64,000 nucleotides of DNA from an uncultured Actinomycetes bacterium (lineage in GTDB: Bacteria; Actinomycetota; Thermoleophilia; Gaiellales; Gaiellaceae). Below are positions 37,601-53,419 of this stretch, in pieces. The stretch covers positions 24,211-88,210 of the forward strand of contig CAVXUY010000006.1 of the NCBI GenBank assembly GCA_963765175.1, written 5' to 3'. The first letter of the stretch is position 1, and each line of letters begins with the position of its first letter. The notes beneath the pieces are model-generated. The model saw only the letters and a program-made list of their open reading frames with translations, searched no databases and had not been told where the DNA came from. A program made the translations under genes and the position numbers.

Positions 37601-37907
37601 CCGACCAAGGGTCCGAAGGCGTCGTGGTCGGTACTTCGAGCTTCGCCTATGGCGCCAAGAAGCTACGGCGTCTCGCCGGGCGCTGACGGGGCTGTTCTTC
37701 CGGAGGCGGTTGGAGGCGCCGCCGGGCGGCGAGCCGAACGCCGGGGCGCTGCAACGCGACCCGGGCTTACGGCGTCCACCTAGCCGAGAGCATCGGAGCG
37801 TCCGGGTTCCCACTTCGCCAAACGAGGATGCTGTCCTGAAGAAGTCCACCGTGTGTCGCCCTCCCCCGATTCGGCTGCAATGGAGGCGGGGGATACACGG
37901 GTTCAGA

Positions 37908-37980
37908 TGGGCCGGGTTGGGATCGAACCAACGACCTTGGGATTAAAAGTCCCCTGCTCTACCAACTGAGCTACCGGCCC
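37908..37980 (-). tRNA. tRNA-Lys (anticodon UUU)
   Basis: Reverse strand GGGCCGGTAGCTCAGTTGGTAGAGCAGGGGACTTTTAATCCCAAGGTCGTTGGTTCGATCCCAACCCGGCCCA folds as a cloverleaf with loop CU-UUU-AA. No encoded CCA. Confidence 0.9.
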
Positions 37981-38099: not shown

Positions 38100-41000
38100 A
38101 TGACACGCCGGCTCGTGCTGGTGCCCGCGCTCGTCGCGGTCCTTTCACTGTTCATCCTTGCGGTCGTCGGTGGGGCGGCTGCACACGGCAGTAAGCAGAA
38201 GAACAAAGCGGACTTCGATTTCTCGACGAAGGTCGTGCTCTTCGCGTCCGACGGGATGCGGCCCGATCTCGTCGACAAGTACGCGAAGAAGGGTCTCCTG
38301 CCCGAGATGGACGAGCTCATGGACGACGGGCTGAAGGGCAAGAACGGGCTGCTCCAGGCGTTCCCGCCGAACACCGGCGTCGGCTGGGCGTCCCTCGCCA
38401 CCGGTGCGTGGCCGTCCTCGCACGGCTCGACGAACAACACGTTCCACCGGACGGGCGAGGGCGAACTTCAACAACTCGACGAGCTTCGCCAACAGCCGGG
38501 AGTCCTCCAGGCGGACACGATCGCCCAGGCGGCCGAGCGCGCCGGGAAGAAGGTCGTGGCCATGGAGTGGGTCGCGGCGCGCGGCTACACGCCCGCGCTG
38601 CAGGGGCCGGTCGTCGACTTCCGGAGCGTTCTTCGGCGGTCGCGGGATCACGCTCAACTTCGACATCCCCGGGCAGACCGCCGCGGCCTTCGGAGTCCAG
38701 TACCAGCAGCAGGAGCTCGGCAGGCGGCGTCCGGGTGGACGAACGTTCCGACGTCGTTCAGCCCCGCGAAGCAGACCTCGTTCTCGCAGAGCAACAGCCT
38801 CAGATCCCGGGGACGGCGTCTGGGACGTCTACGTCTACGACTCGACGAACGACGGCGCGGTCAACTATGACCGTGTGCTCGTCGTGAACGCGTCCAACTC
38901 GAAGAACGGCGGCACGGCCGTCGCGACGCTCGCGCAGGGCGAGTGGGCCGACGCCAAGGTGACGCTTCGTCGGCGACGGGCACGGTCGCCGGCAAGACCG
39001 CCGGCTTCTACATGAAGCTGATCGACCTCTCCGCCGGACGCGGAGACGTTCCGCCTCTACTTCACGTCGGTCCAGCGCGCGAACGCCACTTACAACGCGC
39101 TCGGGCGCGCACGGCTCGACCGCCTTCGAGGAGACGCTCAACCACGACTTCCCTACCTCGACCGCGGCAGATTTCGCGCCGCTCGAGGCGGGGATCGTCG
39201 ACGAGGACACGTACATCGAGCAGGGCCTGATGTGGAAGGACGCCCACTGGGCGTACCTCAAGTACATCATCAAGAGCCTCGGCTAAAGCCCGACCTACTC
39301 ATGGTCGGGACCCCGACGACGGACGAGTTCCAGCACCAGTTCATGGGGCTCATCACGCCGAAGGCCATCGACGGCAGGCCGAACCCCTACTTCGACGACC
39401 TCACGAACGACGACATCCCGGACGGGCGCATCGGCGATCCGCGAGGGCTACATCCGGTCGGCGTACCAGGAGGCGGACCGAACGCTCGCGCTGGCGCGTG
39501 ACCTCGTCGGCGGCGACCCGACGACGTTCGTCTCCTCGGACCACGGCTTCGCGCCGCAGTGGTACGCGGTCAACGTCAGCGAGGTGCTCGTCGACCTCGG
39601 GCTCCAGGAGCGCGAGCAGAGCGGGCAACTGCCGGAAAGCGGCGAACGACCGCGGCCACGCCACGACGCCCGGGCGACACGCTCGCGAAGGAGTGCCACG
39701 CGGGCGGCACCTCGCAGATCTACATCAACCTCGCCGGGCGCGACCCGGCCGCGGGGAACACTCCGCAAGTGCCGGCCGCGAACTACGAGGCGGTGCGGAA
39801 CCAGATCATCACGGCCTTCCAGAACCTGACCGACCCGGCGAACCCGGGCGCGAAGGTCGTGGCGCATGTTTTCAAGAAGGAGGAGCTGCGGGACGTCGAC
39901 GGCACGGACGCGCTGCATCCGAACCGCTCCGGCGACGTCGTTGTCGTCTTCCATCCGCCGTACCAGACGGACGCGCAGACGCCGGGCCAGACGATCGCGT
40001 TCTCGCAGTTCTTCGGCCAGCACGGCTACACGCCGGACCTCGTCAACCTCAAGCGAAACGTCAACATGCATGCGACGTTCATCGCGTCCGGGCCAGGGCA
40101 TCCGCGAGACGCGGTAGAAGATCCGCGGCGTGCGCGCGATCGACGTCGCCCCGACGATCGCGTTCCTCCTGGGGATCCCCGGCCCGCAGAACGCGCAGGG
40201 CAAGATCCTCTACGACATCGTCGACTTCGGCCACGGTCGGCCAAGGCCATGGCAGAAAGGCCCGACCGAGATCACGATCCTCGACATCTCCGACTACCAC
40301 GGCCAGCTCGTGCCGCTGTCCGAGGCGGCGGACAACTCTCCCCGCCGCGCCGCCGCGCCCGTGAATCCGCTGTTCAACATCGGCGGCTCGGCGTTCCTGA
40401 AGCCGTGGTTCGACGAGTACCGCAAGGAGGCGCGAGACGGCTCGATCACGATCGCAGCCGGCGACTCGGTGGGCGCGACGCCGCCGATCTCGAGCTTCTT
40501 CGGCGACACGCCCACGATGGAGCTCATGAACCTGATGGGCTTCTCGGCCGACGGGCTCGGGAACCACAACTTCGACAAGGGGCAGCAGTACCTGCGCAAC
40601 ACGCTGATACCCGCTGGCGAACTTCCCGTTCATCTCGGCGAACGTCGTCGACGCCGACCGGGAAGACGCCGGCACAGTGGCAGCCCGTCGAAACCTTCGA
40701 GTTCGGCAACGGCGTCGACCTCGAGCTGGTCGGGTTCACGAACGAGGACGCTCCGCTCCTCGTCTTCCCGAACGCCTTCGATCCGTTCCAGGTCACGAAC
40801 GCTACTGCGGCGGTGAACGCGGCCGCTGCGAAGGCCACGAAGGCGGAGGCGGTCGTCGCGTTCGGCCATCTGGGAGCGACGGCGGGCACGCTGACGAGCT
40901 CCGCGGGGCCGCTCGTCGACCTCGCCGACAACGTCACGAACGTCGATGCCGTCATCGGCGACCACACCAACTTCCAGGTCCTGTCGACCCGGCCGAACGG

Positions 41001-41911
41001 TGTGCTCGTCACCGAGAACCTGAGCAAGGGCGTCCGCTTCACGCGGGTCCGGCTCGTGGTGCTCGGGGGCGAGCGTGATCTACAAGACCGCCGACTTCCA
41101 CCGGCCGTGGAACATCGGCGTCACGCCGGATCCGGAGATCCAGGCGCGGATCGACGAGCTGAACGCGCAGATCGCTCCGATCCTGGACGACCTGGTCGGG
41201 AACTCGTCGCGCGTCGTCCCGCGGTCGGACGCAGTGCGGGCAGCGTGACGGGGCGTTTGTGCGAGTCGCTGATCGGCAACGTCGTCACCGACTCGCTGCG
41301 GACGGCGTTCCCGGCGGCCACGCCGGCGATCGACTTCGCGATCACGAACTCCGGCGGCCTGCGAGACGCGCCTGACGTGCCCGACGACGGACAACCCGTC
41401 CGACTTCTGTCCGCCGTTCACGCCGCCGCCGTTCCCGATCACGAAGGGACAGGTCCTGACCGTGCTTCCGTTCGGGAACACGGTCGTGACGCGCGACGAT
41501 CGACGGGGCGGACGCTGAAGACGATGCTCGAGAACGTGGCGTCTCGGCAGATGCCTGCGGCCAACGGGCGCTTCCCACAGGTCTCAGGGCTGTGCTTCAC
41601 GTACAACATCGCGGCCGCCGCCGGGAGCCGCGTGACGCGCGTCGTCCGGCAGGCCGCGGACGGCACGTGTACAGGGGCACCGGTGACGTTCGGGGCCGGA
41701 GACAGCTACCGCTCGCCACGAACGACTTCATGTCGTTCGGCGGCGACGGGTATCCGAACCTCGTCGCGCAGCTCGATACGCCGTCGATCATGACGATGGA
41801 CGAGCGACTCGATCACGTACCTCGAGGCGAACCCGGCGATCAGCCCAGCGATTCAGGGGCGGATCAACTGCCGACCGGCGGCGACTTGCCCGGTCGATTA
41901 CCTCGCCGTAA
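38100..41911 (+). pseudogene. secreted nucleotide pyrophosphatase/phosphodiesterase (AlkP superfamily) fused to a 5'-nucleotidase (metallophosphatase plus C-terminal domain), heavily frameshifted
   Basis: Signal peptide MTRRLVLVPALVAVLSLF, then SDGMRPD..PPNTGVGWASLATGAWPSSHG, SSDHGF, IDVAPTIAFLLGIP, ILDISDYHGQ, GNHNFD, CESLIGNVVTD, LATNDFMSFGGDGYP. These segments are spread over all three frames with roughly 20 frame changes. Confidence 0.85.
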
Positions 41912-42725: not shown

Positions 42726-42798
42726 GCCCCCATCGACTAGCGGCCCAGGTCGCAGCCCTTTCAAGGCTGTAGCGCGGGTTCGAATCCCGCTGGGGGCA
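42726..42798 (+). tRNA. tRNA-Glu (anticodon UUC)
   Basis: GCCCCCATCGACTAGCGGCCCAGGTCGCAGCCCTTTCAAGGCTGTAGCGCGGGTTCGAATCCCGCTGGGGGCA; acceptor GCCCCCA/TGGGGGC, loop CU-UUC-AA. Confidence 0.9.
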
Positions 42799-42857
42799 TC
42801 AGCAACGTAGGCGCCGCGCGGAACCCGCATGGTTGAGCCAAGTGGTATGTGCGAGAA

Positions 42858-42898
42858 GTGCAGGATTTGCGAAACGGTGCCGGACCGGTGCCGGACCG
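42858..42898. repeat. repeat R3 copy a (GTGCAGGATTTGCGAAACGG), then an 11-nt tandem GTGCCGGACCG x2
   Basis: R3 recurs at 46897-46917 as GTGCAGGGTTTCGCAAACGCC. The tandem is 42877-42898. Confidence 0.5.
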
Positions 42899-43363
42899 GA
42901 ATCTCCCTCTCGACCAGGTGCTCGCGCGCTACTCAGGAGAGCCCCGTCGCCGCTCCGAACGGAGCGCGCGCTACCTTCGCCGCCCCGAACGGACCGCCGC
43001 CCGCGCGGGATCCGTCCCCGGGATCGCACCCGACACGTTCCGCCAATTTATTTGTCTAGTTCCACTTGGCTGCTGGAATGGTGCCTAGCGGGTGCCGCCG
43101 GCGACAAGGCCCGAGAGAGTCGAGTCGACGAGTCAGGTTCCGATTCGGCACCGTGAACATGGATGCCCATAGGGACTGCGAGAGACGGTGGGGCGGTGGC
43201 CGATCGAGGGCGAGGTAGCGCCACGATGACGGCCCTGGGCGTTTCGGAACCGGATGCGTACGGGGCGCTACTCCTCCCAATCGCGGACTCGGGTCGCATG
43301 GGGACATCCATCCCTTCCGGGGAGTTGAAGGCTGCGCTGACACGGCGCTGACACTTCAACCTC

Positions 43364-43485
43364 GGGACACGTCCCGAACGGCCATCTTGTCGTCGGCCTT
43401 GGCATCGGTCATCGTGACGAGCGCGGGACCGGGCCCGATCGGTGGGAACCTCGGCGTCCAGGCGTTCAGGTAGCCGCCCGGCCCC
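43364..43485. repeat. interspersed repeat R1, copy A (full length, 122 nt)
   Basis: Starts with the palindrome GGGACACGTCCC and ends CAGGCGTTCAGGTAGCCGCCCGGCCCC. About 83% identical to copy C by hand alignment, with one 7-nt gap. Confidence 0.75.
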
Positions 43486-43566
43486 GCTCGAGCTCGCTCT
43501 AGGAGACGGCGTAAGCGAACTTCGTCCGGATTGACACAACGGCCCGCGCCGGGGAGGATCTAGGAC

Positions 43567-43929
43567 ATGTCCGTGGTGTCCGCCCGTGGGCTCATGGTCG
43601 CGTATGCGGCTTCCCTGGCGGTGCTCGATCTCTACGCCTTGCTGCCGGGCAACCCCCACTATTCGAGCGTCGGGGGGTTCATCGGTTCAGTTGCGATCCA
43701 GGCGCTCATCGTCTGGCGGCTCTGGCACGGCTCCTCGCTCGCGTGGTTCTTCGCGCTGCTGTTTGCCACGCTCACGCCAGTGAGCCTCGTGTTGATGGCG
43801 GCGCCGGTCGAGTTCGGCGTCGTCTTGCTCTTAGTCGTCTCGGTCGCTCAAGCGGTGATCCTGTTGTCACGCCCGATCAGGCCCGTGGCATCGAAGACGG
43901 CCAGTGACCTCGACCCCTTCGGTCGCTAG
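43567..43929 (+). CDS. hypothetical membrane protein (120 aa, 3-4 TM)
   Basis: ATG preceded by GGAGGA; hydrophobic segments; coding-like GC3. Confidence 0.6.
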   Translation: MSVVSARGLMVAYAASLAVLDLYALLPGNPHYSSVGGFIGSVAIQALIVWRLWHGSSLAWFFALLFATLTPVSLVLMAAPVEFGVVLLLVVSVAQAVILLSRPIRPVASKTASDLDPFGR

Positions 43930-43946
43930 GCGACCGAGTCGCCGCG

Positions 43947-43987
43947 CTCAGGCGTTCAGATAGCCGCCGGCCCCGACATCTCGACGA
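43947..43987. repeat. repeat R1, copy B (3' part only)
   Basis: CTCAGGCGTTCAGATAGCCGCCGGCCCCGACATCTCGACGA matches the 3' end of copy C including the GACATCTCGACGA extension. Confidence 0.65.
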
Positions 43988-44105
43988 CCGAACGTCAGCT
44001 ACGAGAGCGGAGTCCGAAGGGATCCCTTGTAGCCGAGGTTGACCTGGTTCGGCCTCGGGTAGAGACTCAAGATCGAGCACTGACTTCGAGTGGAGGTTCG
44101 GTCAG

Positions 44106-44915
44106 TTGCCCGACGTATACGCGACGATTTCCGAGGCTGAACCGGCCGTCGTCGAAGGGCTCGTCGACATCCTCGAGCTCCGAGCGGCCGATGCGCAGCA
44201 GCGTGAGATGCGGGAGGCGTACTTCGCGGATATCGGCTTTCCCGCTGGTGCGCGTGTCGCCGAAGTCGGCTGTGGCCCTGGGCCGGTGGCGCGGGCTCTT
44301 GCGTCCCAACCTGGTGTCGGGACGGTTGTTGGCGTCGACGCGTCACCGATTTTCATCGCCAAGGGCCGAGAGCTTGCGCAGGACCTCCCGAATCTCAGGT
44401 TCGTCGAGGGCGACGCGCGTGCGCTCCCGCTGGAGGACGGATCGTTCGACGTGGTCGTGTTCCACACCACCCTCTGCCATATCCCCGGTCCCGAACTCGC
44501 CCTGACCGAGGCTTCACGGGTTCTCGTTGTCGGCGGGCGGCTCGCGGTCTTCGACGGCGACTACGCGACGATGACGTGCGCGTGCGGCGACTTCGATCCG
44601 CTGCAGGCGTGCGCCGAAGCATGCGTCGACCACCTAGTGCACGACCGCTGGCTCATACGTCGGCTGCCCAAGCTCGTACGCGCCGCAGGCTTCGAGCTTG
44701 GGCGCTTTCGGAGTCATAGCTATATGGAAGCGCCGTCCTCAGACGGCTATATGTTCGCAATGGTCGACCGCGGGGCCGATGCCTTACGCGCCAGTGGTCG
44801 GATAACGCTTGAGGGGGCCAACGCGCTCAAGGCCGAGGCTCGTCGTCGGTCCGATGCCGGGGAGTTCTTCGGGCACATCGCCTACGCAAGCCTCATCGCG
44901 CAGAAGTCGGCGTAG
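44106..44915 (+). CDS. class I SAM-dependent methyltransferase
   Basis: 269 aa; motif I VAEVGCGPGPVARAL, then FDVVVFHTTLCHIP. Confidence 0.85.
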   Translation: MPDVYATISEAEPAVVEGLVDILELRAADAQQREMREAYFADIGFPAGARVAEVGCGPGPVARALASQPGVGTVVGVDASPIFIAKGRELAQDLPNLRFVEGDARALPLEDGSFDVVVFHTTLCHIPGPELALTEASRVLVVGGRLAVFDGDYATMTCACGDFDPLQACAEACVDHLVHDRWLIRRLPKLVRAAGFELGRFRSHSYMEAPSSDGYMFAMVDRGADALRASGRITLEGANALKAEARRRSDAGEFFGHIAYASLIAQKSA

Positions 44916-44940
44916 GCTCAGTCACTCACCCGACTTGCGT

Positions 44941-45068
44941 GGGACGTGTCCCGACCGGCCAACTTGTCGCCGCCGTCGACGTTCGCCATCGTGACGTTCG
45001 CGGGGCCGGGTCCGATCGGTGGGAGCCTCAGGCGTTCAGGTAGCCACCCGGCCCGACATCTCGACGAG
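44941..45068. repeat. repeat R1, copy C (full length)
   Basis: Starts with GGGACGTGTCCC, the exact reverse complement of the copy A palindrome. Begins 26 nt after the methyltransferase stop. Confidence 0.75.
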
Positions 45069-45189
45069 CTGCCGGGGGGCTGCCACCGGAGACCGCCGTG
45101 GGTCCCGACTGTGCTCTCTGGCGACGGGGCGAGTAGACCCGCGGCTCACTCCCACTGTATGTTCGCGAACCACCGAGCCTGGAGGGTCA

Positions 45190-45846
45190 TTGTCGCTTTC
45201 ACTCGAACGTCTGGCCTCTGCATTCGCGCTTGCTTACGTCGGGTTGTTCGTCGCCCTGCTCGCGTTCACGACCGAGGGCCCAGATCCAACACTTCCGGCT
45301 GCTGAGGAGATGGCGAGAGCCGCGTCGGAGAGTGGTGCCATGCGTGCGTCGGCTCTGCTTGGCTTTGCGGCGAGCCTCGCCTTTGCGGGATTCGCTGCGT
45401 GTCTCGGCGTGCTGCTCGCGCGTCGGGGCGATGTGACTGGCGCAGGGCTGATCGTGGTTGCCGGGGCGCTCGCAACGGCCGTTGACGCGGTGTCGGCGGC
45501 CGGGCTGATCGTGGCCGTGGAGGCGGCGGATCGTGCCCTTAGCGCCGATGTGTTCGCCGCCTTCGGTGACCTTCATACGGCAGCGCTCCTCCTCGAACTC
45601 GCCCCTCTAGGCTTCGTTCTCATCTTGGCCTGGCGTGTCGGGCTAGGTCGGATCGTGTCCTGGATGGGACTCGTCGTCGGGATCGGCTGTGTGATCGCTT
45701 CGGGCGCCGTGATGAGCGAGGACTTCGATCGTGGGCCCCTGGGCATCGCGGTGGTCATCTGGTTTCTCGGACTTCCACTGTGGCTGATCGCGACTTCGTT
45801 CGTCCTCATTCGACGCGGGGCAAACCCAAAGGATCTCGTGTCTTAG
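45190..45846 (+). CDS. hypothetical membrane protein (218 aa, about 6 TM)
   Basis: TTG 45190 follows GGAGGG. The ORF-track start 45019 lies inside repeat copy C and its upstream codons are not protein-like. Confidence 0.6.
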   Translation: MSLSLERLASAFALAYVGLFVALLAFTTEGPDPTLPAAEEMARAASESGAMRASALLGFAASLAFAGFAACLGVLLARRGDVTGAGLIVVAGALATAVDAVSAAGLIVAVEAADRALSADVFAAFGDLHTAALLLELAPLGFVLILAWRVGLGRIVSWMGLVVGIGCVIASGAVMSEDFDRGPLGIAVVIWFLGLPLWLIATSFVLIRRGANPKDLVS

Positions 45847-45897
45847 CGGCGTAGCTGCCGCGCGCGACTCTGTACGGAGCCACGACCCCGACCGCGT

Positions 45898-45951
45898 GAG
45901 ACATGCCCGGAACGCCCATCTTGTCGCCGGCGTCGATGTCCGTCATCGTGA
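45898..45951. repeat. repeat R1, copy D (5' part, more diverged)
   Basis: GAGACATGCCCGGAACGCCCATCTTGTCGCCGGCGTCGATGTCCGTCATCGTGA aligns with the first 54 nt of copies A and C. Confidence 0.55.
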
Positions 45952-46067
45952 AGTGCGCAGTCGTCTACGTGAAGACTGGCCGGCTCGTCTACACCGTGCG
46001 CGACGGGAAGATCGTTAGCTATGAGCTCGAGAACCTCGACGAGTCCGAAGTCGCAGGTAATCCCTGA
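45903..46067 (+). pseudogene. 54-codon ORF whose 3' half resembles the C-terminus of an NTF2/SnoaL-like protein
   Basis: ...VVYVKTGRLVYTVRDGKIVSYELENLDE. The 5' third is made of repeat R1 sequence. Below the ORF-track length cutoff. Confidence 0.3.
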
Positions 46068-46252
46068 CCGTGGCGTTCGCGCGTCGGCTGATCGTCGCCT
46101 ATCCGGGGTGCACTCCACGGTAGGCGCGGGCTTCGGGCTCGCCAAATGACACAAATGAGTCCATTGGTGGGGCCGACTTGCTTCCGTCGGTGGCGGTGTT
46201 CGTCGGCATGTCCTGGCTGCCTGTGACCCTCACCTCCCGCACTCCGCAACGC

Positions 46253-46318
46253 AGAGGAGGCCGCGAGGGACCTCCTCGTCGAGCGCGTTGGTGCGGGGTT
46301 CAGCCCGTGACCGCCACC
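46253..46318. repeat. repeat R2, copy a
   Basis: AGAGGAGGCC(gcgagggacc)TCCTCGTCGAGCGCGTTGGTGCGGGGTTCAGCCCGTGACCGCCACC. Copy b at 46932-46987 lacks the bracketed 10 nt. Confidence 0.55.
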
Positions 46319-46385
46319 TTCATGTTGAGGAAACGTCGAGATGGGGTACCAAATACACATAAACGAGACGGGGTTTCAAACACTC

Positions 46386-46814
46386 ATGAAAGAGATCATC
46401 GTCGGATACGACGGATCAGCGGAAGCGGAGCGCGCACTCGTGCGAGCCGCCGACATCGCGGAGGCGTTCTCCTCGCAGCTCGTAGTGGCGAGCATCACGA
46501 ACTACCCGGCGGCAACAGCGATGGCACCGGTAGCGCCCACACCCATCGCCACGCGCTCGCCCGAGTCCGGGGAGCTCGCCGAACGAGAGCTCGAGCAGGC
46601 ACGCGCGAGTCTCGCGGGGCGTTCGGTGCAGGCCGAGTACGTGACCGAATTCGGCGATGCCGCCGAGCGACTCCTCGAGCTCGCCGAGCGCCGAGACGCG
46701 GACCTCATCGTCGTCGGCAGCCGCGAGCATGGTTTCCTTGAGCACGTCCTCGGGATGTCGTGCGACGAGAAGGTCGCCCGACGCGCGCACACGGACGTCA
46801 TGCTCGTGCACTGA
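46386..46814 (+). CDS. universal stress protein
   Basis: MKEIIVGYDGSAEAERAL ... ADLIVVGSREHGFLEHVLGMSCDEKVARRAHTDVMLV. Confidence 0.8.
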   Translation: MKEIIVGYDGSAEAERALVRAADIAEAFSSQLVVASITNYPAATAMAPVAPTPIATRSPESGELAERELEQARASLAGRSVQAEYVTEFGDAAERLLELAERRDADLIVVGSREHGFLEHVLGMSCDEKVARRAHTDVMLVH

Positions 46815-46896
46815 GTCACGTCCCGAAGACCCCTCCGAACGCGCGACTGAGGCACCTCGGACAGAGGTCGCAAATCGAACGCCGCCGGACCGAGAC

Positions 46897-46987
46897 GTGC
46901 AGGGTTTCGCAAACGCCTAGGCGACGCGGAAAGAGGAGGCCTCCTCGATCGAGCGCGTGGAGCCGGGGTCAGCCGGTGACGGCCACC
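46897..46987. repeat. repeat R3 copy b (46897-46917) followed by repeat R2 copy b (46932-46987)
   Basis: See 42858-42877 and 46253-46318. R2a and R2b flank the USP gene. Confidence 0.55.
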
Positions 46988-47115
46988 GGGATCGGAGCGA
47001 ACAGTAGGTCGGCGGATGTAAACGATGGGCGTGAGCTGGTTGTGCCAACAGGCGAGGCCGGAGCGGGCTTCGTCGTAAGGTGAGAAGTGGCGGGGGCTCC
47101 GTGAGCGCGAGAGCG

Positions 47116-47379
47116 TCACCCCTTGCCGGCCCCGCCGCGCTCCTCGATTAGCAGGTAGCCCGTGTGGGAACACTCAGAAGGATGCTGAACACGCGGTATG
47201 CCCTCCTCGGCTGGCTTGTGTGGCAGGTTGGAAAGCGCCGCCTCCGCAAGAAGCTCGTGCCTCGACGCCTCACGATCAAGGTCACGCGCTGACGCGGCGA
47301 CTCGCGCACGCCTCGCACACGAGAACTCGACGCCGAGCCATGTTTGACCCCCCGCGCAACCCGGGTAGCGTTGCGGCAC
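47116..47379 (-). CDS. hypothetical ORF or gene fragment ending ...HTGYLLIEERGGAGKG
   Basis: Shares a YL-x-IEER C-terminal motif with 47473-47706. Weak coding signal. Confidence 0.25.
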   Translation of the reverse strand: MPQRYPGCAGGQTWLGVEFSCARRARVAASARDLDREASRHELLAEAALSNLPHKPAEEGIPRVQHPSECSHTGYLLIEERGGAGKG

Positions 47380-47472
47380 CCAAAGAGAGAATGGGTTCGG
47401 CCGTGCTCTGGACGTTTCTGCCGCTTCCGGGCAGAGCGCGGAGAAGAGCGGCCGTCCGTTCTCTTTCTCCGT

Positions 47473-47706
47473 TCAGCGGTGGGTCAGTTCAGCCCGCCCG
47501 CCTCCAAGCTCCCGCTCCTCGATCCGCAGGTAGCTCGCTAGTTCAGGATCATCGCCACCCGAACAACTGAGCGAAGAAGGGGTTAGAGAACCAGCACGTT
47601 CTCGGCCGGACATGGGGCTAGACGGCTGAGCGATACGAGCCTTGAATCGATCGAGCCGATGCGTCAGAGTCTCTGCGAGCACTGGGGGCCAGTGCATACC
47701 GTCCAC
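47473..47706 (-). CDS. hypothetical ORF or gene fragment ending ...DDPELASYLRIEERELGGGR
   Basis: Shares the YL-x-IEER motif with 47116-47379. No family recognised. Confidence 0.3.
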   Translation of the reverse strand: MDGMHWPPVLAETLTHRLDRFKARIAQPSSPMSGRERAGSLTPSSLSCSGGDDPELASYLRIEERELGGGRAELTHR

Positions 47707-47721
47707 TCAGGGGGTGGGGAC

Positions 47722-48117
47722 ATGATGAAGGTATTTGTTGCGGCCGTCCTCGCGACGGCGCTCTTCGTCGGCATTGCAGCGCAACCGGCTCCGGCCGTCG
47801 TGCATGAGATCTACGCGGCCTGGTGCGCGGGCAAGGGTGAGATCGAACCGCCGGGTCTGTCCCGCGAAGGCAGCAAGAACTTCGCGATGCCCGTGCTCAA
47901 GAGCGGGGCCGTGTCGGTTCATCCGTTCACCGGCGCGCAAGGCCCTGGCCTTCTGGTCGACATCGACTTCGACGCGCCGAACGTCAAGATCATCCCGACC
48001 GGCAACATCATCGTGATCGGACAGACGCCCGCCGGGCCTCTGTATCTGGAGGAGTTCATGATCGATCCGAACTTCCCAGCGTTCTCGAACTGCGCGAACC
48101 TGCAGATCCCGGGCTGA
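47722..48117 (+). CDS. hypothetical secreted protein (131 aa)
   Basis: Signal peptide MMKVFVAAVLATALFVGIAAQPAPA; G-rich RBS; two Cys. Confidence 0.6.
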   Translation: MMKVFVAAVLATALFVGIAAQPAPAVVHEIYAAWCAGKGEIEPPGLSREGSKNFAMPVLKSGAVSVHPFTGAQGPGLLVDIDFDAPNVKIIPTGNIIVIGQTPAGPLYLEEFMIDPNFPAFSNCANLQIPG

Positions 48118-48127
48118 TCCATGCACA

Positions 48128-48199
48128 CGACAGTGGGGGAGCGGACAGTTCCCCCACCTGTCGCTGGTTAGCGTTTGTCTCGGACCGGCACCGGTCCGA
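48128..48199. terminator. two hairpins between convergent genes
   Basis: CGACAGTGGGGGA...TCCCCCACCTGTCG (48128-48163) and the perfect TCGGACCGG-CA-CCGGTCCGA (48180-48199). Confidence 0.5.
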
Positions 48200-48302
48200 T
48201 GAGGGCAGCAAACAATGGGGTGGAGTACGTCCCTTCTCGGAGTTGGCACCGCCTGGCGAGGGGCCGGGATCCAGCCCAGCCCCTCCCGGCTAGCGATGCG
48301 GC

Positions 48303-48743
48303 TCACGCACTCGACGGCATGAGCCGGAGCTCTCCGGTCCACGACGTAGTCGTCCCGGCGGCGCCCACGAGGTTGCTTCGCTGGTGGACTTGTGCGCCCG
48401 CGAACGAGCCCTCCGTGACCGTGCCGTTCAGCACGATGAACCCGGCTGGGCTGACATGCAGATTCATCTCGGCCGTGAACGAGATGCCTCCGACCGTGAT
48501 CCGCTCGGTCGCTGTCAGCTGGGCGGCGTTGCCGGTGGCCCGGAAGCTCGTGATCTGCATCACGATCGTGACGCCGCCGGCGGTTCCCACGCAGAGACCA
48601 CGGGTTTCGTCGCACGTCTTCGCGTACTGGATCACGATCGGCGCGCTGGACGCGGACGCCTGCGCCGCCCCGAATGCAACGACCCCGACGACCGCCGCGA
48701 CGACGGTGACGAGCAATCCGAAGAGTGTCTTGATGTTGGTCAT
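48303..48743 (-). CDS. hypothetical secreted protein (146 aa)
   Basis: Signal peptide MTNIKTLFGLLVTVVAAVVGVVAFGAAQASA; AAGGAG RBS; beta-rich sequence with a Cys pair. Confidence 0.6.
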   Translation of the reverse strand: MTNIKTLFGLLVTVVAAVVGVVAFGAAQASASSAPIVIQYAKTCDETRGLCVGTAGGVTIVMQITSFRATGNAAQLTATERITVGGISFTAEMNLHVSPAGFIVLNGTVTEGSFAGAQVHQRSNLVGAAGTTTSWTGELRLMPSSA

Positions 48744-48978
48744 GGTTCCCTCTGCTCCTTTCCTCTCATTGCTGTCGTTCGAGCAGTGCCGATGCCGTCT
48801 CGAGCTGGCTTCAGCCGCGGAAGGAAGGACGTGCCGACTCCGGCCCAGTGCGTGCGAGCTTGCGCCAATTGCAACGAGAAATCAAGTGGGATCCGCGGGG
48901 TGGTCAGCCGCGGGGTCCGAGGTCGTCCTTCGCGGCGCCGGGTCGCGTCCTCCTGTTCGCCTGCGGCCACCGAAATAG

Positions 48979-49307
48979 GTGAGGCGAGCGGCGTTTCAGC
49001 GGAGTAGCCTGCGGTTGATTAATGCGCGTGTTCTAGACCTGAGGCGATCAGCAGCAGTGGTGCTCGTGGTGGCCGGTGCGGTCGCCTTGGCTGCGCCGGC
49101 GGGCGCGGCCATCCAGGCGACGACGGTGGACGCCGCAGCTGAAGCGCAGGCGGTGATCCCGCTGCTCTACAAGAACTGCACGAACTTCAACAGAGGTATC
49201 CGCATGGCGTCGGCCGCTTGACGGCGCGAGACAGGACCACGAGCGGCGACCCGGTGACTAACTTCAAGCGCAGCACCCGGATCTACAACATCGCCATGTC
49301 GTACTAA
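48979..49307 (+). pseudogene. secreted YKNCT/YPHGVG-type protein (family usually carrying an Excalibur Ca-binding domain), frameshift near 49195
   Basis: Signal-like RRSAAVVLVVAGAVALAAPAGAA, then LYKNCTNFNR / YPHGVGRLTARDRTTSGDPVTNFKRSTRIYNIAMSY in two frames. No DxDxDG motif follows. Confidence 0.6.
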
Positions 49308-49511
49308 ACGCACGGTTCGATCGCACGGGACGACACGCCGCAAGACCAGAGCAGTTGACCAGCGAGTCGACCAGTTCGTCGCCAGCGCCGGCTACTACGC
49401 GCTGGCGTTAGCCCGCGAGCAGGCGCCGCGAACGATCGAGAGATCGAGGGGGAGGCGTGGGGCGTACGCGTTGCGGGCCTGACCGGTGTCGGGGACACGC
49501 GGCGTTCCTGA

Positions 49512-49853
49512 TCAGGGAGCGAGAAGGACGAGCAGGACGGACACGGCTCCCACCGCGATCCCGACCGCCGCGAGAGCCAGCAAGAAAGCCTCGCCGGTGT
49601 GCGGTTCCCGGTCTTCCCGCAGCGCGGCCTGCAGCTCTCGGTAGTGGACGATCCCGTACACCATGGCTGCCAGACCGGAGGCAGCCAGCGCCGTTCCCAA
49701 TGCGATATACGGCCAGTTCGTGCCGCCGACGACCTCGGGCAGGACGCGCCCGATTGCGAATCCCGCCGCGATCCCGGCCAAACCAGTACGCCACCATGCG
49801 AGATACGTGCGCTCGTGCGCGAGTTGCGTCCGGTGGACTTCGCCGCTCGCCAT
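49512..49853 (-). CDS. DUF202 (YidH-like) membrane protein
   Basis: 113 aa; QLAHERTYLAWWRTGLA motif plus three TM helices. Start at the internal ATG. Confidence 0.7.
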   Translation of the reverse strand: MASGEVHRTQLAHERTYLAWWRTGLAGIAAGFAIGRVLPEVVGGTNWPYIALGTALAASGLAAMVYGIVHYRELQAALREDREPHTGEAFLLALAAVGIAVGAVSVLLVLLAP

Positions 49854-50112
49854 TTCAGGGGGCCGAGCATAGGCGTGTTCGAGCGCCGAGTGTGCAGGCG
49901 CTCGCCGCAGCCGCGTCTCCGCGCTCTGCCCACTTGGACGCCACGCGGCCAACGTAACGAACTCACCTCGTCTGTCAACCACGCGCTCGTGAGAGTCCAC
50001 ATGGCCAAGACGCCCGGCGCGTAGCTCACCGACAACGGTTTCCATTTCGCCGACGCTTCGCCAGAAAAACGCCAGAACTGCAGAACGGCGCGTGCAAGTC
50101 GGCGGGGCGCGG

Positions 50113-50407
50113 TCACTCACCGCGCGCTAGTACTCCCAACCGCTTGTGGTCGATGGCATGCACCAGCGCGTCCGCATGACGATGCACGAGCTCCCGTCCG
50201 ACTCTGCAGTGCGCCGGAAGACCCACGTCACGCGCAGCGACCAGTCCTGCTCCGGCAGGCCCCCGATCGTCCCGTGCTGTCGCTCGATGACGACGAGCAC
50301 CGCCAAGTCGCCGGAGGTGTAAGTCTCCACGACCTCGACCTTCGCCTCGCCGCCGCGCGAAGCGGCCGCCCCATAGGGAGCGGCCGCGTGTGGTCGATGG
50401 AAGCTGA
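50113..50407 (-). pseudogene. NTF2/SnoaL-like (DUF4440-like) gene remnant, 5'-truncated and frameshifted near 50193
   Basis: ...VEVVETYTSGDLAVLVVIERQHG...LRVTWVFRRTAESDG / ELVHRHADALVHAIDHKRL. A G-run one nt short explains the shift. The missing N-terminus would lie under the 50408-51049 gene. Confidence 0.6.
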
Positions 50408-51049
50408 CTAATGCGCGAGCGGCGGATGTCGCGTCGCGCGGACTGCGAGCGTGAGTCCGAGCATCAGCAGGATCCCGATGCCTAGCCCGATCCCGATCTG
50501 CGACCACTCGATCTCAGTACCGGAGCTCGAGACGGACACCTGCGTCGGCTCGTTGACCGGCTTGGCCTGGAACCGATTGTCGTTGGCGACGAAGTGGGCA
50601 TCCGAGCCTGACGTGCGACGGGCTGCAACATGCCCGAAGAGCGTCGGGTCGTTGCGGTATGCGCGGCCGAGCGCCTCGCCGCGAAGGATGACCGCCTGGG
50701 TCGCCGGGTCCTGTCCGAAGAGAGTGGGGTCGTTGCGGTATGCGCGGCCGAGCGCCTCGCCGCGAAGGATGACCGCCTGGGTCGCCGGGTCCTGCCCGAA
50801 GAGCGTGGGGTCGTTGCGGTATGCGCGGCCGAGCGCCTCGCCGCGAAGGATGACCGCCTGGGTCGCCGGGTCCTGCCCGAAGAGCGTGGGGTCGTTGCGG
50901 TATGCGCGGCCGAGCGCCTCGCCGCGAAGGATGACCGCCTGGGTCGCCGGGTCCTGCTGGACGACCGGCTGATCCTGTGCGAACGCGGCCGGAACGGCAA
51001 GGACAAGGGACGCTCCGAGAACCGCGATGGGGGTCAAGCTGCGATACAT
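50408..51049 (-). CDS. secreted, C-terminally membrane-anchored protein with 4 x 27-aa identical repeats
   Basis: Signal peptide ...AVPAAFA-QDQ; (QDPATQAVILRGEALGRAYRNDPTLFG) x4; C-terminal TM helix IGIGLGIGILLMLGLTLAV followed by RATRH. AAGGAGG RBS. Confidence 0.75.
   Translation of the reverse strand: MYRSLTPIAVLGASLVLAVPAAFAQDQPVVQQDPATQAVILRGEALGRAYRNDPTLFGQDPATQAVILRGEALGRAYRNDPTLFGQDPATQAVILRGEALGRAYRNDPTLFGQDPATQAVILRGEALGRAYRNDPTLFGHVAARRTSGSDAHFVANDNRFQAKPVNEPTQVSVSSSGTEIEWSQIGIGLGIGILLMLGLTLAVRATRHPPLAH
50633..50956. repeat. 81-nt tandem repeat x4 inside the CDS
   Basis: Units 50633-50713, 50714-50794, 50795-50875, 50876-50956. Units 3 and 4 are identical; units 1 and 2 differ by 1 and 2 synonymous nt. 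Confidence 0.9.
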
Positions 51050-51272
51050 GGCCTTCCTCCTTCTCCTCGGTGACCTTCATGGCCACCTGCATCGAGGCTA
51101 TGGAGGTGGGCGTGTGCCTACAACGGGAAAACCCCTCGTGTATGGCCGCGACCGGTACCTGCGGAAGTCCGCAAAGTCACCAACGAGCCCGGTTCCGCTT
51201 GGCGTCTGGCATGGCCGCATTTCGCACAACCATGCGGGTTCCCGCCCCGCGTTCAAACACTGCTGGGCACCC

Positions 51273-53346: not shown

Positions 53347-53419
53347 GGGCGGTTAGCTCAGCTGGTAGAGCGCCTGCTTTACACGCAGGTGGTCGCAGGT
53401 TCGAGTCCTGCACCGCCCA
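53347..53419 (+). tRNA. tRNA-Val (anticodon UAC)
   Basis: GGGCGGTTAGCTCAGCTGGTAGAGCGCCTGCTTTACACGCAGGTGGTCGCAGGTTCGAGTCCTGCACCGCCCA; loop UU-UAC-AC. Confidence 0.9.

Follow-up and report, generated by a model that had tools for sequence, protein, structure and literature searches.

The locus considered here raises a single question: what is the short repeat that recurs in the gaps of a run of unrelated small genes, and does it have any part in bringing those genes together? The locus lies in a 64,000-nt stretch of DNA from an uncultured Gaiellaceae bacterium (contig CAVXUY010000006.1, positions 24,211 to 88,210), hereafter called the window. The original prediction, made from this DNA, noted an array on the plus strand whose organisation looked cassette-like. 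The present analysis establishes a repeat family that is real and previously undescribed, with a unit of about 130 nt, or about 150 nt when its upstream direct repeats are counted. We tentatively read these repeats as double-stranded DNA recombination joints (att-like sites) for single-gene modules, served by an enzyme encoded elsewhere; this reading is possible rather than probable. The subject bears on how small accessory genes gather in hypervariable tRNA-linked islands of soil Actinomycetota, and the repeat family itself is a searchable motif that marks the joints of single-gene modules in several genomes.

Four copies had been predicted in the window, and all four were recovered at their places on the plus strand, with the limits of copies A and D adjusted as given below.

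43364-43497, plus strand: copy A, full, long variant; box 1 at 43371-43395, box 2 at 43408-43418, box 3 at 43422-43445 and box 4 at 43459-43479, followed by GCTCGAGCTCG
43947-43987, plus strand: copy B, 3' part only, consisting of box 4 and GACATCTCGACGA; profile positions 87-130
44941-45068, plus strand: copy C, full, short variant (7 nt fewer before box 4), with the 3' extension GACATCTCGACGA
45898-45958, plus strand: copy D, 5' part only (boxes 1 and 2); profile positions 3-66; last in the array

The full copies A and C are 128-134 nt long, and the truncated copies B and D measure 41 and 61 nt, respectively. The family profile, with E values calculated within the loci searched, gave 3e-33 for A, 8e-32 for C, 2e-14 for D and 6e-4 for B; the 90% identity of B to C over 41 nt is better support for this copy than its profile score. 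Copies A and C are similar as predicted, but the proposed figure of 83% was slightly too high: over 121 aligned nt and with a single 7-nt indel, their identity is 78.5%, and over the first 89 ungapped nt it is 80%. When all 64 kb were searched with the family profile, no further convincing copy was found in the remaining window. A weak box-4-like match on the minus strand (37716-37749; 79% over 34 nt), located 160 nt downstream of a tRNA-Lys gene in the orientation of the tRNA, was rejected as a fifth copy, since it is not significant with the family profile.

The alignment of the family resolves four conserved blocks parted by variable spacers of fixed length. Box 1 is GTCCCGAACGGCCATCTTGTCGCCG, with the near-palindrome GGGACRYGTCCC before it, and box 2 is GTCATCGTGAC; the 17 nt between CTTGTCG of box 1 and CATCGT of box 2 vary in sequence and are fixed in length. 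Box 3 is CGCGGGGCCGGGCCCGATCGGTGG. Box 4 is CAGGCGTTCAGGTAGCCACCC, and on its 3' side stands either GCTCGAGCTCG or GACATCTCGACGA. The segment before box 4 is 7-8 nt longer in the long variant than in the short one. The repeats are non-coding, unstructured, orientation-specific and conserved in blocks as DNA.

The positions at which partial copies are cut are not random. The 5'-only copies end at profile coordinates 66 (D), 67 (L125), 89 (L003a), 91 (L084), 53 and 39, and the 3'-only copies start at 61 (L069b) and 87 (B), so that 5'-only ends and 3'-only starts meet at two points of the profile (66/67 with 61, and 89/91 with 87). Of the two, the cluster between boxes 2 and 3 is the sharper.

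A perfect tandem direct repeat (8-10 nt, period 11-13) was located at most 60 nt upstream of box 1 in 6 of 17 copies, compared with only 2.9% of random 66-nt windows holding tandem direct repeats of at least 8 nt. All six of these copies are the ones nearest to the conserved flank, namely the array-proximal ones. The example in the window precedes copy A:

43334-43354, plus strand: GCGCTGACAC-G-GCGCTGACAC, a tandem direct repeat; 9 nt separate its end from copy A, and 16 nt from box 1 of that copy

Although the motif of the direct repeats varies among subfamilies, it is common to the loci L104, L125 and L180, and the direct repeats are therefore regarded as part of the unit. For the same reason, their interpretation as excision footprints or target duplications was rejected. 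In L180, an extra perfect tandem direct repeat, GGTGTGGTCTC twice, was observed at 690-720 (read on the minus strand), about 110 nt upstream of the first copy, besides the TTTCTACC pair directly before box 1.

The search for copies beyond the window, which the original prediction had proposed, revealed that the repeat is not confined to this locus. The profile built from all copies comprises about 20 diverged members. A pattern of the 5' part run over the genome collection identified three contigs (L003, L032 and L069) of a related soil metagenome-assembled genome, 'uncultured Actinomycetes bacterium MFD09267.bin.1.238', one gene of which is 91% identical in DNA to the window; the other 70 of the 73 loci were dismissed as chance matches, mostly in conserved housekeeping genes. 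A second pattern yielded a few short soil-metagenome contigs with copies (L106, L084, L086, L104 and L082), most of the 50 metagenome matches again being due to chance. Loci L124, L125 and L180 were recovered by searches in protein space, through spurious open reading frames (ORFs) lying on copies. Plasmids and phages searched by blastn gave nothing real, and two pattern scans of the IMG/VR viral contigs gave no true copy.

Pairwise identity among copies is 60-80%, with no recent near-identical pairs; the family is thus an old and rare one, limited to a narrow soil clade. The nearest relatives of copy A are L069a and L106, and that of copy C is L032. Because the copies in one array are not mutual nearest relatives and the genes are unrelated, the array did not arise by local duplication, and tandem duplication of a repeat-plus-gene unit was rejected on these grounds.

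The arrangement seen in the window recurs in other genomes, in agreement with the predicted cassette-like organisation. Same-strand arrays consist of four copies after tRNA-Arg in L069, two after tRNA-Asn in L003 and four after tRNA-Glu in the window, and in L180 two copies flank a gene of only 35 codons. In L104 and L125, a copy stands just after the orthologous conserved prs gene; these two prs genes are 80% identical in nucleotides, box 1 is 93% identical, and the sequences part within the repeat. The L104 copy carries a 3-nt deletion. Across the family, copies start 2-52 nt after the upstream stop codon. A conserved non-coding segment of about 100 nt, 89-90% identical between L069 (3111-3210) and L003 (2576-2672), was also observed adjoining copies in these two loci and is absent from the window.

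The setting of the array in the window is defined by the following features.

42726-42798, plus strand: tRNA-Glu (TTC), identified by ARAGORN and Rfam; conserved anchor of the array
42801-51272: strain-specific island of lower G+C, holding the repeat array, a universal stress protein gene and unnamed ORFs
43163-43351, plus strand: possible 62-codon ORF before copy A; weak signal of G+C at third codon positions (GC3), no family match; ends with a stop codon within the second of the tandem direct repeats
43567-43929, plus strand: module gene 1, predicted membrane protein of 120 aa; no family match; GC3 0.86
44106-44915, plus strand: module gene 2, class I S-adenosylmethionine-dependent methyltransferase (Pfam Methyltransf_11, E 9e-24; also NCBIfam)
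45190-45846, plus strand: module gene 3, predicted membrane protein of 218 aa; no family match; start inferred from a GGAGGG ribosome-binding site
45959-46067, plus strand: apparent remnant (C-terminal part) of a SnoaL/NTF2-like gene, joined to the truncated copy D at the distal array edge; strong plus-strand coding-frame signal; no significant Pfam match, the assignment being made from the appearance of the translation only

The modules are 0.5-1 kb long, and the genes between copies have no similarity with each other, the repeats aside, as originally stated. The predicted distance of 18-52 nt from the preceding stop codon is also correct (18 nt for B, 26 nt for C and 52 nt for D), and copy A starts 12 nt after the stop of the possible 62-codon ORF.

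A tRNA gene precedes the array by 270-565 nt, in the same orientation, in three of the four long loci: tRNA-Glu does so in the window, tRNA-Asn in L003 and tRNA-Arg in L069. The border at tRNA-Glu was examined in three close relatives (L126, L127 and L177), which have DUF2087 proteins 88-95% or more identical to that of the window. The DUF2087 gene and tRNA-Glu are present in all three, and at 42798-42800 their DNA ceases to match the window; L126 matches again from 51273, with a PALP gene, an M20 peptidase gene and tRNA-Val. The DNA after tRNA-Glu differs in each of the four genomes, and the repeat was found in none of the three relatives. Two further contigs end at tRNA-Glu, about 150 nt before the DUF2087 gene. 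As homology stops at the 3' end of tRNA-Glu and is followed by different DNA in each genome, the array lies in a strain-specific hypervariable island, the one at 42801-51272 listed above. A stretch of lower G+C (0.65-0.67) spans about 43 to 50 kb, against about 0.70 for the window overall.

Compared with what is expected of a tRNA-integrated island, the island begins at a tRNA 3' end with a break of synteny; the window holds no tRNA-Glu fragment longer than 12 nt anywhere that could serve as a distal att site, and no integrase gene was found among the tested island ORFs (42.8-51.3 kb). A distal direct repeat of a tRNA 3' end occurs in degenerate form in L003, where a degenerate tRNA-Asn fragment (1477-1524) closes a 2.4-kb islet. 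Fragments of the tRNA-Asn 3' part, from the anticodon loop to the 3' end, also lie 110 nt from the L124 copy and 634 nt from the L106 copy. In L082, a tRNA 3' fragment has copies on both sides, pointing away from it.

Variable DNA was observed at other tRNA genes as well. L126, L127 and L177 also cease to be homologous to the window exactly where tRNA-Lys ends on its 3' side (37908-37980, minus strand; break at 37907/37908); beside this gene, L126 and L177 carry an integrase fragment or gene and the window has none. At tRNA-Val (53347-53419, plus strand), homology with L126 ends at 53419, and the L126 segment downstream of tRNA-Val sits elsewhere in the window. From these comparisons, at least two of the three tRNA genes of the window (Glu and Lys) border variable DNA.

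The island contains further short repeats. The universal stress protein gene (46386-46814) is flanked by a second one, at 46262-46320 and 46935-46985, whose two copies are 77% identical overall and share a core of about 50 nt, CCTCCTCG.TCGAGCGCGTGG.GC.GGGGTCAGCC.GTGAC.GCCACC, after a GAGGAGG/CCTCCTC hairpin; this suggests that the junction repeats of the island belong to at least two families. Non-coding pieces at 47054-47098, 47331-47475 and 47486-47538 are 82-92% identical to L126 662-965, downstream of tRNA-Val, and to L032 7509-7557, and therefore small conserved pieces move between tRNA-linked islands. An internal 25-nt repeat was seen at 47138-47162 and 47513-47537. The spacer between tRNA-Glu and the first ORF (42830-43030) contains GTGCCGGACCG twice and, at 42944-43001, CCGxCGCCGCxCCGAACGGA twice, with no convincing ORF. 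Near the distal island edge, four tandem 81-nt units with 98% identity (50631-50957) form a 27-residue protein repeat in a minus-strand ORF (50408-51049).

We favour the recombination-joint reading because DNA conserved in blocks stands at the joints between units and at the borders between conserved and variable DNA, because the ends of partial copies cluster, and because the 5'-only copy D is distal. We infer recombination at the repeats, the position of the crossover and the existence of a dedicated enzyme. At the joints, modules would enter or leave small islands of a narrow clade of uncultured soil Actinomycetota, with tRNA 3' ends and a few further conserved genes serving as anchors. A module in free, circular form would bring one complete site. 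Its crossover with the site already in place, for which the interval between boxes 2 and 3 is the likeliest position, would then produce a full hybrid copy proximally and, at the distal array edge, a copy reduced to its 5' part. Copy D is 5'-only, is the last in the array and abuts non-array DNA, and it is the leftover to be expected if circular modules integrate into a resident site. The tandem direct repeats of the copy nearest to the anchor could act as accessory protein-binding sites, and the recombinase gene would lie elsewhere in the genome.

Several observations weigh against this reading. No recombinase gene was found among the ORFs tested (36.8-54.9 kb), and no protein was consistently linked to the copies in other loci. 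No pair of genomes sharing an array and differing by one module was found, and no circular module junction was seen. Only eight break points are available, falling into at least two clusters plus outliers, and may be the result of simple deletions; a crossover between box 2 and box 3 would not account for copy B. Some copies, in L124 and L032, face a convergent or divergent gene. In addition, the family may no longer be active, because its members are only 60-80% identical and no young copies exist.

Part of this evidence would also suit relics that spread long ago, whether from a selfish, non-autonomous element or from the arms of old islands integrated at tRNA genes; they would persist passively in island DNA of rapid turnover and play no part in gene movement, their partial copies being ordinary deletions. 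We regard this as doubtful, though it deserves to be taken seriously. The low copy number, the divergence and lack of young copies, the variable break points, the lack of a nearby recombinase and the presence of other short repeats in the island all agree with a relic, and the copies that flank tRNA fragments point outward like the two arms of an integrated element. However, between L104 and L125, box 1 is more conserved (93%) than the adjoining prs coding sequence (80%), and block conservation across genomes points to selection; moreover, the repeats have no terminal inverted repeats, and the internal array copies have no adjoining tRNA fragment. It is unlikely, in our judgement, that the repeat is a portable promoter or operator, with CTTGTCG and CATCGT, 17 nt apart, as -35/-10 elements or regulator sites placing unrelated island genes under common control. 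Two conserved boxes with a variable spacer of fixed length would be expected of such an element, most copies face the next gene from 70-200 nt upstream of its start, and most 5'-only copies retain both boxes (D, L125, L003a and L084; L082 and L069d have box 1 only), while the upstream tandem direct repeats resemble activator sites. On the other hand, a consensus scan of 42.6-46.5 kb found no sigma-70-like promoter. Measured against the actinobacterial -10 consensus, TANNNT, CATCGT is missing the initial T, and its inner bases are invariant, which is unusual for such an element. The copies also start 2-52 nt after the upstream stop, which ties them equally to the upstream gene, and those of L124 and L032 have no co-directional gene ahead. 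A promoter would, furthermore, leave the spread of the same 130 nt to unrelated genes unexplained, and a mobility mechanism would still be needed. As a relic or a shared promoter, the repeat would be no more than a modest curiosity of its lineage. If it is a recombination joint, a crossover point and a circular intermediate are predicted, and the enzyme could be sought by co-occurrence.

The classes of known elements fitted far less well, and membership in the attC, MITE, Rfam and pseudogene classes failed. That the copies are remnants of a protein-coding gene (displaced ends or pseudogene fragments), or a small antisense ORF (VTMTDxxxGDKMAVRDVS), is very improbable. The repeats do show a GC3-like three-base periodicity of G+C and open frames on both strands, a minus-strand frame is open through copy A, its peptide is alike across copies, and the L104 deletion is of 3 nt. 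Nevertheless, the G+C-rich phase is the most conserved position and not the least, the A-C substitutions are distributed evenly among the three phases and not concentrated at third positions (5 of 18), as had been predicted, and the two variants are unequal in length by 7 nt. When 5.8 billion proteins were searched with profiles of both frames, and 1.84 billion representatives exhaustively with HMMER, only ORFs on copies were returned, and for these reasons we do not take the repeats for gene remnants. Pfam was negative on the translated repeat, and the stop codons after the peptide are not conserved. Extremely improbable, too, is a structured RNA (riboswitch, leader or small RNA) before each gene; the copies are indeed intergenic and orientation-specific, but Rfam reported only tRNAs at the gathering threshold and nothing overlapping a copy at E up to 10. 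Folding of both strands, a check proposed at the outset, was no better than that of dinucleotide shuffles (z-scores -0.71 to +1.22 in six copy/strand combinations), and the consensus fold of -11.8 kcal/mol had an unfavourable covariation term of +1.4, so that no conserved pairing was detected. The same results leave next to no chance for an integron or an integrase-less attC cluster (CALIN), one of the ideas raised in the original prediction. The layout is that of attC sites, with one site per cassette just after the ORF, in one orientation, 12-52 nt after the stop, between modules of 0.5-1 kb, and A, C and D fall within the attC length range of 57-141 nt (B, at 41 nt, is outside it). However, RYYYAAC and GTTRRRY occur only once each in 42799-46400 (regular-expression search of both strands; 42832 and 45284), neither in nor beside any copy, no attC core pair 40-150 nt apart exists in this segment, and neither a Phage_integrase match nor intI was found among the ORFs tested between 36.8 and 54.9 kb. 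The absence of attC cores, of hairpin symmetry and of intI had been noted from the start, as had the oddity of an integron-like array in this phylum, complete integrons not having been found in Actinobacteria (PMC9024848). The second idea, of repetitive extragenic palindromes (REP) or miniature inverted-repeat transposable elements (MITEs), is contradicted by the low number of old, diverged copies (4 in 64 kb, instead of many near-identical ones with flanking target duplications) and by the lack of terminal inverted repeats, end-to-end inverted alignments scoring no higher than shuffle means for A, C, L106, L032 and L069a; the direct repeats present are one-sided and tandem. A template/variable repeat pair (TR/VR) of a diversity-generating retroelement (DGR) was rejected, as substitutions of every type separate copies A and C (6 of 18 are changes from adenine, 4 from guanine) and no reverse-transcriptase domain was found among the tested ORFs. 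The three findings that the original prediction had named as fatal to it did not emerge: the repeat occurs elsewhere, it is not a gene remnant, and the segment differs among close relatives.

Outside the island, a phosphodiesterase/5'-nucleotidase gene (38100-41793) that forms one 1270-codon ORF in L127 is split over several frames in the window (38100-38870 and 39559-41793, with the best coding signal at 40130-40816). Its split reflects either frameshift decay or insertion/deletion errors in the assembly.

Among known systems, integron arrays are the closest in layout to the array described here, and tRNA-anchored islands of repeated integration are the closest in genomic setting. Like integron arrays, the present one consists of single, unrelated, co-oriented small genes with one repeat of about 60-140 nt per joint, shortly after the stop codon, and the repeats are highly diverged within the array. 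The integron site attI1 carries two direct repeats, DR1 and DR2; the extra direct repeats of the proximal site here are a further likeness. In contrast, the repeat has no R''/R' cores and no end-to-end imperfect palindrome or hairpin, no intI is present in the tested ORFs, the array is anchored at tRNA genes and not beside an integrase, and the exchange point would be in the middle of the site, whereas in attC it is at the 3' core.

Other systems of small mobile modules show partial likeness. The pdif (XerC/D) sites of Acinetobacter plasmids are 28 bp long, with an AT-rich centre and alternating orientation. They share with the joints proposed here small gene modules bounded by short sites and a recombinase encoded elsewhere, but nothing dif-like is visible in the repeat. 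The MITE, REP and bacterial interspersed mosaic element (BIME), mycobacterial interspersed repetitive unit (MIRU) and Correia repeats are likewise short, non-coding, lineage-specific and intergenic between co-directional genes, yet the present repeat differs in having no terminal inverted repeats, palindromic unit or flanking target duplications, in its few old and diverged copies, and in its restriction to island DNA. Regarding the genomic setting, the tycheposon islands of Prochlorococcus arise by repeated, tRNA-targeted integration, and the repeats that punctuate them are partial tRNAs, that is, att sites (bioRxiv 10.1101/2020.12.28.424599). The island described here is similarly hypervariable and degraded, starts at a tRNA 3' end, holds strain-specific cargo and may lack integrases, and the islets of L003, L124, L106 and L082 have tRNA 3' fragments inside them or at their margins. 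It differs in that the repeat is unrelated to any tRNA, that the units are single genes of 0.5-1 kb, and that the island of the window contains no tRNA-Glu fragment. These comparisons allow the bolder and, in our view, unlikely proposal of a new gene-cassette system of Actinomycetota that is independent of integrons, with composite double-stranded sites of about 130 nt, a proximal site bearing direct repeats, tRNA anchoring and a recombinase elsewhere. Under the favoured reading of the repeats as recombination joints, the repeat would broadly operate as integrons do, although it does not belong to the integron family.

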